A DNA stretch of 64,000 nucleotides from an uncultured delta proteobacterium (lineage in GTDB: Bacteria > Desulfobacterota > Binatia > Binatales > Binataceae). Made by a program: the position numbers and the translations under genes. Below, piece by piece: positions 10,043-12,846 of this stretch. Under the pieces are notes generated by a model. The model was not told the origin of the DNA. It worked only from the letters and a program-made list of their open reading frames with translations, and searched no databases. Positions within the stretch are counted from its first letter, which is position 1. Each line of letters opens with the position of its first letter. The stretch spans positions 960,001-1,024,000 of the forward strand of contig CAWJET010000001.1 of assembly GCA_963842085.1 (NCBI GenBank), in the 5' to 3' direction.

Positions 10043-10642
10043 ATGAGGAAAGGAAGCTTAAGATTCGCGTTGATCGCAATCGGATTGTCGGTGATGCTGG
10101 CGATGCCGGCCGGTCCGCTCGCTGAGTACGCCGCCGCGCAGACGCAGCCCGCCGGCGCGGCGACGCCGACGCAGGTCCCGCAGCCGCCGGACAATAGCGT
10201 CAACTGGCCGGGCGCAGGTTACGGCGCAGGCGCCCTGCTCTGCAACGTTCTCTACATCCCGGCCAAGCTGGTTTACGCGCTGCTCGGCGGTATCGTTGGC
10301 GGCGGAACATATCTGATAACTGCCGGCAATTCGCAGGCCGCCAACACCGTGTGGCGCAGCGCACTCGGCGGCGACTACGTCGTGACGCCGCAAATGCTCG
10401 CGGGCCAGCAGCCAATCAACTTCAGCGGGCCAACCGACACTCCGCCTGTCGCTCCGGCGCCCGTGACGAGCTCGTCGTCGGGCACGACGACGACTGCGAG
10501 TTCGGGCGGCGTCGCGCCGATAACGCCGCTGCCGGCGTCGGGCACGTCCGCGACCGCATCGTCGTCGACGGCAGCCGGGCAGCCGCTGGATCACGGCAGC
10601 GGTCCGGCGGGCGGAACGGCGTCGGGATCGAATATCGAGTAG
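10043..10642 (+). CDS. Exported/membrane hypothetical protein with S/T/A/P-rich tail
   Basis: GGAGG RBS; signal peptide; NVLYIPAKLVYA..GG..GGDYVVTP core. Confidence 0.75.
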   Translation: MRKGSLRFALIAIGLSVMLAMPAGPLAEYAAAQTQPAGAATPTQVPQPPDNSVNWPGAGYGAGALLCNVLYIPAKLVYALLGGIVGGGTYLITAGNSQAANTVWRSALGGDYVVTPQMLAGQQPINFSGPTDTPPVAPAPVTSSSSGTTTTASSGGVAPITPLPASGTSATASSSTAAGQPLDHGSGPAGGTASGSNIE

Positions 10643-10697
10643 CAGGGTCAGGCGCCTTGAAATCGGGAGCTTCGCGAGTTAGGCGAGCGGCCCGTTT

Positions 10698-10845
10698 GTC
10701 ATCCTGACGATGCGAGCGACGCGGGGTTTCCGTCATCCTGACGATGCGAGCGACGCGAGGTTTCCGTCATCTTGACGATGCGAGCAACGCGAGCTGAGGA
10801 AGGATCTCGGACAGCTTCGCGTAAGCGAAGCCGGTTCCGGTTTCT
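10698..10845. repeat. REP-like element: two 34-bp tandem partial units plus one full unit (left arm)
   Basis: GTCATCYTGACGATGCGAGCRACGCG at 10698, 10732 and 10766; the third extends to GAAGGATCTCGGACAGCTTCGC...CCGG. Confidence 0.9.
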
Positions 10846-10923
10846 TAATCGCGCGATGCGCGCGCTCGTTTTAGACTTGCCGGAGACGTTCCGCGGCACT
10901 TTTCTGATCTCGGAGGATCGCGT

Positions 10924-11274
10924 GTGAGAATGATCCGCTTTCTGTGGAAGTCGACCTGAACGACTTGCCGCGACGCAAGAAGTTTCTTGCGTAAGGATCT
11001 CGGCGCCGAGCTCGACGAGCGCGACTACGCGAAAGTTCCGCTTAATTCGGCGGAGCTGAAGAACCTGTTCGCGGGCCGCGACCCGCGCGATTTTCTAAAC
11101 CCGCGCAGCCCCGCGTTCAAGGCGATGGGCCTGGCAGGCAAATCGCTAACGCCCGAGCAGGCGTTGGCGCTGATGGCGAAGGAGCCGAACTTAATCAAGC
11201 GGCCAATCGTAATCGTCGGCAAAGAGATGATCGCAGGCTTCGATCGCGATAGGCTGCGCGCCGCGGTGAAGTAG
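10924..11274 (+). CDS. ArsC/Spx-family selenoprotein (UxxC)
   Basis: GGAGG then GTG 10924 (or ATG 10930): MIRFLWKST-TGA(10957)-TTCRDAR in frame with the ORF 10987-11274 carrying LIKRPI...GFD; TGA sits at the first Cys of the CxxC. Confidence 0.88.
10973..10992 (+). promoter_or_regulatory. Bacterial SECIS-like hairpin
   Basis: ACGCAAGA-AGTT-TCTTGCGT, 8-bp stem; apical loop with GU starts about 22 nt after the UGA. Confidence 0.7.
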
Positions 11275-11279
11275 GTCGC

Positions 11280-11360
11280 AGAACCGGTACCGGCTTCGCT
11301 GGCGCGAAGCTGTCCGAGATCCTTCCTCAACTCGCGTTGCTCGCGTCGTCAGGGACGGAA
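11280..11360. repeat. REP-like element, right arm (inverted copy of 10762-10845)
   Basis: Reverse complement aligns over about 80 bp with few mismatches. Confidence 0.9.
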
Positions 11361-11427
11361 GGGACGCGCTGCGCGTGCAATAGCGCGGGCGCGATGCTAT
11401 TTCCTGAGCCAGGCGAGGTGTTTTTTC

Positions 11428-12846
11428 ATGGCATTCTCTGACGATCTGTTTTTCGCTCCCGCCAACAAACTCGTTGCGATGCTGCGAGCGCGCGACGTGT
11501 CTTCGGTCGAGATGGTCGATGCTTTTATCGAGCGGATCGAGACGGTCAATCACGGCCTCAACGCGGTCGTCACGCTGGTCGAGGACCGCGCGGCGGGCGA
11601 AGCGGAGGACTCTGATCGGCGTCTGGGCGGCAATGGCGAGGTTCGCCCGCTCGAGGGGCTGCCGATCACAATCAAGGATTCGATAATCACCGAGGGCGTG
11701 CGCTCGACCTGGGGCATGAAGATTTTTGAGCATCACGTGGCGAAAGAGGACGCGCCCACTGTCGCGCGGCTGCGCGCGGCCGGCGCGATCGTTATCGGCA
11801 AGACCAACACGCCCGAGATGACGATGGACTACGACTGCGATAATCCCGTTTTCGGGCAGACCAACAATCCGTGGAATCGCGAGCGCGTGCCCGGCGGCTC
11901 AAGCGGCGGCGAGGCGGCGGCGCTCGCAGCGGGGATGTCGCCGCTGGGCTTGGGCTCGGACTATCGCGGATCGATCCGGGTGCCGGCGCATTTCTGCGGT
12001 GTGGTCGGGCTCAAGCCGAGCTGGGGAACGATCCCCTGCAGCGGGCATATGGCGCCGAGCGTTGCCGCGCCGCCGCCGCTCGCGCACATGGCGACGATCG
12101 GCCCGATGGCGCGCTACGTGGACGACCTGACGCTCGCCTACAACATCGTTAAAGGGCCGCATCCAAGCGCGCCGTACACGGTGCCATCACCAGACGTCCA
12201 TCCTGAAAAAATCGATCTGAAGAAAGTTCGATGCGCGATCTTTACCGACGCGTGCGACGTTCCGGTCACGTCCGACACGCGCGCCGCGATCGAGCGCGCC
12301 GGGCGCGAGTTGCAGAAGACGGGAATCGTCGTCGAGGTGGTGAAGCCGCCAGTCGACGAGGGCGAGCGGTTGTGGTGGGCGTACCAGGGCGCGGACGGCA
12401 ATCAACTTGTGCTGGAGGCGCTGGGCGAGAGCCTGAAGCTCTCGCGCGAGCGGCTGCGAAATTTCGTGGTTGCGGGCGAGGGAAAGTCGGCGGCCGAGTT
12501 CTTCAAGATCGCGATGGAACGCGACGCCTGGCGCGTGCAACTGGCGGAGTTCATGGAACGCTACCCGATAATTCTCGGACCGACGTTCTGCGTGACCGCG
12601 TTCAAGCACGGCGCCGCCGAGGTCGAAATCGACGGGAAGAAATATCCGTACATCCTTGCGAGCTGGCCGGTAGCGTGGGGCAATTGCGCAGGGCTGCCGG
12701 GCGCGGTCGTGCCGTGCGGAAGAGATCGCGAAGGGCTGCCGATCGGACTGCAGATCGTTGGGCGCGCGTTTGGCGAGGAGACCGTGCTGGCAGTCGCGAA
12801 GGCGGCGGAAGCGGCGCTGGGCGGCTATCAGAAACCGCCGCTGTGA
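11428..12846 (+). CDS. Amidase signature family protein
   Basis: PITIKD, GKTNTPE, GGSSGGEAAA, GSDYRGSIRVPA. Confidence 0.95.
   Translation: MAFSDDLFFAPANKLVAMLRARDVSSVEMVDAFIERIETVNHGLNAVVTLVEDRAAGEAEDSDRRLGGNGEVRPLEGLPITIKDSIITEGVRSTWGMKIFEHHVAKEDAPTVARLRAAGAIVIGKTNTPEMTMDYDCDNPVFGQTNNPWNRERVPGGSSGGEAAALAAGMSPLGLGSDYRGSIRVPAHFCGVVGLKPSWGTIPCSGHMAPSVAAPPPLAHMATIGPMARYVDDLTLAYNIVKGPHPSAPYTVPSPDVHPEKIDLKKVRCAIFTDACDVPVTSDTRAAIERAGRELQKTGIVVEVVKPPVDEGERLWWAYQGADGNQLVLEALGESLKLSRERLRNFVVAGEGKSAAEFFKIAMERDAWRVQLAEFMERYPIILGPTFCVTAFKHGAAEVEIDGKKYPYILASWPVAWGNCAGLPGAVVPCGRDREGLPIGLQIVGRAFGEETVLAVAKAAEAALGGYQKPPL

Follow-up and report, generated by a model that had tools for sequence, protein, structure and literature searches.

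In bacteria, the decoding of UGA as selenocysteine (Sec, U) involves SelB bound to Sec-tRNA(Sec), which recognises a hairpin located just 3' of the UGA codon (PMC9312934). 'ArsC-like' selenoproteins were already listed in a 2006 survey (PMC1794560), a 2008 paper on Global Ocean Sampling data described an 'Arsenate reductase 2, cd03032, UxxC' family comprising 42 sequences with Sec and 238 with Cys (PMC2398784), and reviews from 2022 and 2026 describe both a UxxS arsenate reductase and a UxxC protein resembling arsenate reductase (PMC9312934, PMC13188914). Here, we describe a gene of this type in a stretch of 64,000 nucleotides (nt), hereafter the window, from an uncultured delta proteobacterium of the family Binataceae in the class Binatia (GenBank assembly GCA_963842085.1, contig CAWJET010000001.1, positions 960,001 to 1,024,000). 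Comparative sequence analyses indicate that the UGA at position 10957 of the window is very probably decoded as Sec and that the gene is a genuine and complete selenoprotein gene. As in the sets described in 2006 and 2008, its product has an ArsC/Spx-type domain with Sec as the first residue of UxxC; those sets, in which Cys homologues outnumber Sec forms, were likewise predicted from TGA/Cys pairing and a downstream stem-loop. Their sources were marine metagenomes and a small number of Deltaproteobacteria, whereas this member comes from soil Binatia. From the published descriptions, which are all that was compared, it is likely that the window gene and these sets belong to one family. ArsC-like UxxC selenoproteins have thus been in print since 2006-2008, and what the window gene chiefly reveals is a gap in the annotation of soil bacteria; in the literature library that was searched, no paper joins Binatia and selenocysteine.

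The gene and its elements, all on the forward strand, are positioned as follows in the window:

10912..10916, + strand: Shine-Dalgarno sequence GGAGG, read in the sequence, 7 nt before the GTG start codon
10924..11274, + strand: full coding sequence (CDS) of a predicted 116-residue ArsC/Spx-family selenoprotein, with a GTG start, UGA as Sec12 and a TAG stop at 11272-11274, from its translation and its match to Pfam ArsC
10957..10959, + strand: in-frame TGA, predicted selenocysteine U12 of U-T-T-C, at the column of Cys10 of the Spx CxxC
10966..10968, + strand: TGC, putative resolving Cys15 of the U-x-x-C centre, from translation and alignment
10973..10992, + strand: predicted selenocysteine insertion sequence (SECIS) hairpin, with stem 10973-10980 / 10985-10992 and loop AGUU 10981-10984, from the centroid fold
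10987..11274, + strand: 95-residue open reading frame (ORF) called by gene finders, with a TTG start within the 3' arm of the hairpin

The frame runs V/M-R-M-I-R-F-L-W-K-S-T-TGA-T-T-C-R and on to the TAG at 11272-11274, giving 116 residues from the GTG at 10924-10926; an ATG at 10930 is an alternative possible start. Between 10900 and 11000, the DNA reads ...TCGGAGGATCGCGT GTG AGA ATG ATC CGC TTT CTG TGG AAG TCG ACC TGA up to the Sec codon and TGA ACG ACT TGC CGC GAC GCA AGA AGT TTC TTG CGT AAG... from it, and the product with TGA read as U begins V/M-RMIRFLWKST-U-TTCRDARSFLRK. In the relatives L027, L031 and L039, the start is preceded by this same stretch, containing either GGAGG or GGAGA, and an aligned start codon was present in all 30 genus loci that were first read (ATG in 24, GTG in 6). 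Since codons 5-11, which precede the TGA, vary almost solely at third positions (diversity of 0.40-0.61, with first and second positions nearly fixed), this upstream stretch is translated in this frame. Cys15 is invariant in a 30-row alignment of the family (alignment A2).

A mechanical ORF listing gave the 95-residue ORF starting at TTG 10987 only, which lacks any CxxC, and the same length was found in 69 of the 120 database clusters listed from public collections, some of them from NCBI records and one of them (P0037) holding the product of the window gene itself. In the structural model presented below, the first strand spans residues 3-8 and the active-site helix residues 13-25; since these precede or include residue 22, where the short ORF begins, the 95-residue product would lack a core strand and the active-site helix. 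The preliminary description of this DNA had proposed all of these elements from the letters alone, and each could be read directly: the tracked ORF without an N-terminal CxxC, the upstream GGAGG, start codon and KST-TGA-TTC-R in frame, the 8-base-pair hairpin, with AGUU in its loop, that begins 14 nt past the UGA (also obtained as the centroid fold), a length of about 116 codons, and the shortening of the gene by standard callers.

The same description implied that the host has a Sec machinery, and we found all of its parts in the genome of the window (4.93 Mb in 2 contigs, 100% complete by markers): a tRNA-Sec (70.9 bits, called SeC with anticodon TCA by ARAGORN) and, by profile searches and above curated cut-offs, selA (558.5 bits), selB (367.5 bits) and selD (380 bits). 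The selD gene has its own in-frame TGA (...CKAAG-U-AGKLGP), making it a selenoprotein gene itself, and it adjoins selB (G000:C1:2099530-2102506; L012, L010). A second hidden ArsC-family selenoprotein gene was seen on contig 2 (L290:394-741, - strand), beginning M-E-R-I-T-L-Y-H-N-P-G-U-G-N-S-R. This protein is of the UxxS type, scores 105.5 bits on TIGR00014 (cut-off 106.05) and is 30% identical to the window protein with Sec at the same column; its stop-to-stop listing is a 104-residue frame without the N-terminus. Comparing the SECIS shapes of selD, of this UxxS arsC and of the window gene, all three fold and no common motif could be confidently discerned.

To see how the Sec codon behaves among relatives, we used a six-frame protein search of 61 genomes, 37 of which belong to the genus, including that of the window. 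An orthologue was found in 35 of the 37 genus genomes, with one TGA in 23 and none in 12, and the DNA of the latter 12 has TGC at the Sec codon. All TGA genomes but one yielded selA (22 of 23; a contig end truncates it in one of them, and in another it is in pieces), the one miss being a genome that is 64% complete. Among the 12 TGC genomes, 6 have selA: it is whole in 4 (G016, G030, G032, G034) and split into two abutting or overlapping pieces in G012 and G028, which suggests that it is frameshifted and decaying there. In the other 6 (G002, G005, G008, G010, G014, G018; 82-98% complete), selA was not found, and neither was selB in the five of them that were searched for it, so that all genomes without detected selA and selB (five searched for both) carry TGC. 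Two genomes flagged unpublished, G018 (Cys form, no selA found) and G023 (TGA form), are included in these counts. Since the genomes are kin, the counts are not independent events. On a DNA tree computed without the Sec codon and hairpin columns (33 rows of a short gene, with many open forks), 5 Sec/Cys changes are required, and no fewer than 3 if only its well-supported branches are considered. Altogether, these sequences suggest that replacement of Sec by Cys accompanies the decay of selA/selB in this genus. The combination that would have pointed to a nonsense mutation, namely TGC, no conserved hairpin and no Sec machinery, was encountered only in a subset of relatives; since these TGC relatives also lack selA and selB, we take this subset to be the usual Sec-to-Cys replacement and not a sign of a nonsense mutation in the window. 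Two TGA-form copies, L050 (from G020) and L109, look damaged after the hairpin, by a frame break in L050 and by an early stop in L109, which may be either assembly errors in metagenome-assembled genomes (MAGs) or real decay.

The hairpin consists of ACGCAAGA-AGTT-TCTTGCGT at 10973-10992 and forms 8 Watson-Crick pairs in the centroid fold of a 60-nt stretch, after a spacer of 13 nt from the UGA. Its loop presents G26 and U27 at 10982-10983, in a numbering that starts at the U of UGA. Conserved loop guanosines have been described in bacterial SECIS hairpins (PMC1088965). The G-U of the window gene lies at 10982-10983 in a tetraloop, as just described, and is at least 90% conserved at both positions among 49 distinct Sec-form 54-mers. 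In the E. coli fdhF SECIS, the key bases of the loop, numbered from the UGA, are G23 and U24, so that the G-U of the window gene is one codon farther from its UGA.

Sec and Cys forms differed when the constraint on this region was quantified in the genus, using the 12 Cys forms and those 21 Sec forms that are whole (excluding L047, which a contig end truncates, and L050, which has a frame break downstream). Third-position diversity in the Sec forms was 0.06 in the 7 hairpin codons and 0.40 in the 104 other codons, as against 0.39 and 0.36, respectively, in the Cys forms. The longest invariant run in the 21 Sec forms is 19 nt long and corresponds exactly to the hairpin, the next longest being 5 nt. 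All 23 TGA forms of the genus have the hairpin, with 8/8 pairs in 17 and 7/8 in 6, from two distinct 20-mers, whereas 10 different 20-mers occur among the 12 TGC forms and, counting from the loop, no more than 2 contiguous pairs are present in any of these forms. Structure counts were then made over the 49 distinct Sec-form 54-mers, with 16 Cys forms for comparison: 92.1% of the cells of the named 7-pair helix are paired in the Sec forms, a value reached by none of 500 shuffles, as compared to no more than 65% after shifting the 3' partners by 1-3 columns and to 62.5% in the Cys forms. The closing pair covaries among the 49 Sec forms (CG 21, AU 12, GC 2, GU 2, other 12). In the sequences compared, the hairpin is thus frozen only where the codon is TGA.

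The TGA is conserved together with the hairpin beyond the genus as well, as the preliminary description had suggested looking for. Two genomes from another family of the class have homologues about 41% identical to the window protein; these carry TGA, and their 16-nt core is likewise GCAAGAAGTTTCTTGC. The exact pattern TGA-ACN-ACN-TGY-CGN-NNN-core was found in at least 119 species-representative genomes, and in 80 of the 80 loci that were fetched it lies in frame within an ArsC-like ORF that places U between residues 11 and 20; 79 products from these loci are 38-89% identical to the window protein (median 45%). Submitters labelled these 80 loci as Binatota (24), Acidobacteriota (19), 'Deltaproteobacteria' (12), Myxococcota (10) and Thermodesulfobacteriota (6), with single records labelled Nitrospinota, Verrucomicrobiota, Chloroflexota and Bacteroidota that may be binning errors. 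Since such labels are those of MAG bins and old names, we claim the spread for Binatia, Acidobacteriota and Syntrophobacteria only. These phylum labels were also too mixed for horizontal transfer to be argued. When the hairpin context was searched in metagenome contigs with TGA, TGC or TGT allowed at the codon, 120 of the 120 matches had TGA.

A sample that was not constrained by the hairpin came from a protein search (E 1e-15 or better) of 121 genomes from Terriglobia, the class of one Bryobacterales member. A homologue was found in 31 of these genomes, 27 with TGA and 4 without. The hairpin is at the same place in all 26 TGA forms whose DNA was read, with eight core sequences, seven of which were judged by eye to be stem-loops, and with a near-invariant G26-U27. 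The commonest cores are GCAAGAAGTTTCTTGC (10/26), GCAAGAGGTCTCTTGC (9, with the same stem and a GGUC loop) and GCGAGAAGTTTCTTGC (2, with a G-U wobble), the common stem being GCAAGA/UCUUGC with an AGUU or GGUC loop. Five single variants (GCCAAG...CTTGGC, GCCAGG...CCTGGC, GCGAAG...CTTCGC, GCGAGG...CCTTCGC and a GC-rich one) keep the stem by changes on both sides, some with the register shifted by one. The 4 Cys forms have TGC or TGT at the codon and unrelated sequence at the hairpin site. Two genomes of this sample are flagged unpublished, namely G140, the source of the GC-rich variant, and G171, which carries a Cys form.

Contigs from RNA libraries (4 metatranscriptome runs) include pieces that cover 10932-11126, 10935-11163, 10916-10964 and 10945-11032, across the UGA, and one of these contigs continues upstream into a relative's own Shine-Dalgarno sequence and ATG. 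Since they are 85-95% alike to the window, these pieces come from relatives. They prove no transcription, are silent on Sec insertion and were not counted as evidence.

Considering the product itself, the protein read through the TGA matches Pfam ArsC (PF03960) over residues 9-113 with 59.9 bits (gathering cut-off 24, E 3e-16). Its closest solved structures are the Spx proteins 3l78 and 1z3e, whose C10-x-x-C13 aligns with U12-T-T-C15 and which have the R-P-I motif in common with it, and E. coli ArsC is also among the matches. The TGA had been predicted to occupy the catalytic Cys position, and it does lie at the column of Spx Cys10 and is replaced by TGC in the 12 Cys-form orthologues of the genus. 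An AlphaFold model was built for the natural Cys orthologue P0002 (90% identical to the window protein) with 29 relatives; it has a predicted local distance difference test (pLDDT) score of 93.1 and resembles Spx 1z3e_A, YffB and E. coli ArsC with template modelling (TM) scores of 0.84, 0.83 and 0.73, respectively. With such scores, the fold cannot separate the Spx, YffB and ArsC subfamilies. The product of the window gene is a member of the ArsC/Spx thioredoxin-like fold.

Altogether, we propose the following mechanism. Translation would begin at GTG 10924. The hairpin at 10973-10992, whose tetraloop would present G-U 26-27 nt from the U of the UGA, would recruit SelB together with Sec-tRNA(Sec), and these would recode UGA 10957 to selenocysteine. 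The resulting U12-T-T-C15 centre would stand at the start of helix 1, with U12 as a nucleophile at the N-terminus of this helix. Its selenolate may then attack an oxidised substrate or oxidant, Cys15 may resolve the adduct into a selenenylsulfide, and a reductant of the thioredoxin or glutaredoxin type may regenerate the centre. A small thiol/selenol oxidoreductase is the role that we find most plausible, with reasonable rather than high likelihood; a Spx-like redox-sensing regulator is considerably less likely and other roles account for the rest.

Several observations weigh against this reading. The folding energy of the 60-nt stretch is at chance level (z = -0.18, with 78 of 200 shuffles folding as well), RNAalifold on the 49 Sec forms gave a 3-base-pair helix elsewhere instead of the hairpin, and an Rfam scan of 10600-11500 at E 1 gave no match. 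The Cys forms of the genus retain 3-6 of the register's 7 pairs, and several of them are able to fold a shifted GC-rich hairpin. The protein scores under the curated cut-offs of every specific NCBIfam model, and no constant redox partner gene was seen in the neighbourhoods of the genus or of Terriglobia. We know of no general bacterial SECIS model in Rfam. Since the DNA is GC-rich, folding energy is uninformative as a test of the hairpin here, and it is the comparative evidence that makes the hairpin more than chance. Since the Cys forms keep 3-6 of the 7 pairs, part of the self-complementarity is either a relic or a consequence of the encoded peptide A-R-S-F-L-R. Since no constant redox partner gene stands beside the gene, we can only infer its function.

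The shifted hairpin was seen in the Cys forms of one clade (L016, L017, L019, L028, L032) at CDS positions 50-69, as GCGCGA...TTGCGC with AGUUUC in the loop and -7 to -11 kcal/mol; it may be either a SECIS relic or a by-product of the A-R-S-F-L-R codons.

The alternative that survives best departs from the proposed mechanism only in the purpose of the redox centre. The protein would then be a Sec-bearing regulator of the Spx type, binding RNA polymerase at its alpha subunit's C-terminal domain (alpha-CTD) and switching transcription via the U12-C15 selenenylsulfide, which we consider unlikely. The best NCBIfam model for the protein is indeed TIGR01617 (Spx/MgsR), with 61.1 bits, its best sequence and fold matches are Spx structures, its UxxC falls exactly on Spx C10-x-x-C13, and it has the R-P-I motif as well as an Arg aligned with Spx R60. 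This score is nevertheless under the curated cut-off of 75.05, which is passed by 3 of 8 other U-T-T-C family members tested (77.6-81.9 bits), and YffB and other ArsC-like folds match the model almost as well as Spx (TM 0.83 versus 0.84); the match to TIGR01616 is 52.4 bits. Spx G52, which is required for the alpha-CTD contact (PMC2801614), has a column that faces Pro or Asp near a gap in the HMMER alignment, with a Gly 2-3 residues earlier, and the protein ends at 116 residues without the C-terminal tail of Spx chains, which have 131-132. With 85 bits against that of E. coli and 55 bits against the chain from B. subtilis in 1z3e, the alpha-CTD of this genome is of the E. coli type and reads VRAFNGLQ at E. 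coli's VRSANCLK; the contact residue Y263 for Spx is described as confined to Gram-positives (PMC2801614). A complex predicted for alpha-CTD residues 258-342 and the Cys-orthologue alignment A2 scored 0.07 against a mark of 0.32, without controls, and thus speaks neither for nor against binding. In summary of the likeness to Spx of Bacillus subtilis (1z3e, 3l78; TIGR01617), the positions of the redox pair, the R-P-I motif and a similar core-domain length are common to both, whereas the window protein has Sec for Cys10, no C-terminal tail and no clearly kept G52, scores under the TIGR01617 cut-off and comes from an organism that is not a Firmicute.

A true glutaredoxin-coupled arsenate reductase with Sec for the catalytic Cys would fit the Pfam ArsC family and the position of Sec at the catalytic Cys column, both of which the window protein shares with the UxxS arsenate reductase selenoproteins (TIGR00014; PMC1088965). 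This is very unlikely considering that the protein reaches 37 bits on TIGR00014 (arsenate reductase (glutaredoxin)), far from the curated cut-off of 106.05, that it has UxxC and not the UxxS described for arsenate-reductase selenoproteins (PMC1088965, PMC2398784), that no ars genes adjoin the gene, and that the same genome has the separate UxxS gene mentioned above, which scores 105.5 bits on this model as compared to the 37 bits of the window protein, with 30% identity between the two.

Readthrough of the UGA without Sec, by near-cognate insertion of Trp or Cys or by a reassigned code, has nothing specific in its favour and is still less probable, since the TGA state tracks the presence of selA in the genus, since a hairpin with a conserved G-U loop lies at a fixed distance from the UGA and, for a reassigned code, since the 64-kb window is full of ordinary table 11 ORFs. 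The least credible of all is a broken gene, in which TGA 10957 would be a nonsense mutation leaving only the 95-residue product from TTG 10987 or nothing: public annotation does give this 95-residue ORF and 12 genus relatives do have TGC at this codon, but 23 genus, 2 other-family, 27 other-class and at least 119 species genomes keep the TGA, purifying selection acts on the 11 codons upstream of it, only TGA forms have a frozen hairpin, no part of the Sec machinery is missing, and the 95-residue product would, according to the model, lack strand 1 and most of helix 1.

Returning to the selenoprotein gene and its family, the 2026 review assigns the model NF041106 to the arsenate reductase-like protein with UxxC (PMC13188914). 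Proteins of this model (ArsC_rel_Se_1, 'ArsC family (seleno)protein') have in common with the window protein the ArsC fold, UxxC and the selenoprotein character. The window protein nevertheless scores 19.9 bits on it, against a curated cut-off of 85, 8 other family members score 21-40 bits with 0/8 passing, and a search of the whole genome with this model at E 0.01 gave no match. With scores so far under the cut-off, the family is a different lineage of the fold, whose annotation NF041106 cannot rescue. The terms 'TIGR01617', 'cd03032', 'Spx', 'PF03960' and 'COG1393' are absent from the 2026 review (PMC13188914). Since the family fails NF041106 and since the review omits these names, it may be the 'Arsenate reductase 2' of 2008, compared by description and now without a curated model.

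Consequences for annotation are direct: the public 95-residue fragments of this gene and of many relatives lack the active site and are not reached by NF041106, and a model dedicated to this family, in which the position of Sec is marked, would mend the annotation in at least 119 species genomes. The genus also offers a clean case, on a small scale, in which Sec gives way to Cys as selA/selB decay, and the hairpin one in which protein coding and an RNA signal together freeze 16-19 nt across distant lineages. No new kind of system is involved unless the regulator reading is true. For this widespread soil family as a whole (Binatia, Acidobacteriota, Syntrophobacteria), a Sec-containing Spx-like transcription regulator is a doubtful proposition; if it held, a selenenylsulfide switch on RNA polymerase would make a faster, or over-oxidation-proof, oxidant sensor, and the 16-nt SECIS core, unchanged in every letter among proteins with as little as 38% identity, would point to a dual code under strong constraint. 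To our knowledge, no selenoprotein transcription factor has been described.

In the genus, the gene order is a MoCF_biosynth protein, a hypothetical protein, the orthologue of the window gene and an amidase, the first two being found upstream in 29 of 30 genus loci and the amidase in 21 of 30. Terriglobia neighbours differ and include CoA-transferase, 3-hydroxyacyl-CoA dehydrogenase, enoyl-CoA hydratase, and Fer2_2 plus MoCoBD. At several Terriglobia loci (L298, L299, L307, L308, L316 and others), the homologue lies beside a dehydrogenase pair made of [2Fe-2S] Fer2_2 and molybdopterin-binding MoCoBD_1, with CoA-transferase / 3-hydroxyacyl-CoA dehydrogenase genes alongside. A molybdenum-cofactor theme joining these MoCoBD_1 neighbours with the MoCF_biosynth neighbours in Binatus is possible but weak.

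Upstream of the gene, the gap to the preceding gene is about 15-40 nt in most genus relatives and 280 nt in the window, through repeats. A sigma-70-like promoter was looked for in 10600-11500 and none was found, and this repeat-rich spacer holds a terminator-like GC hairpin with a T-run at 10850-10864, about 60 nt before the Shine-Dalgarno sequence. Two inverted copies of a 70-nt repeat flank the gene (10773-10842 and 11282-11351, 93% complementary). We rejected this inverted repeat as part of the gene's mechanism, since the repeat is dispersed, matching 52 places in the genome and often clustered. Three tandem 34-nt units (10698-10799) lead into its upstream copy.

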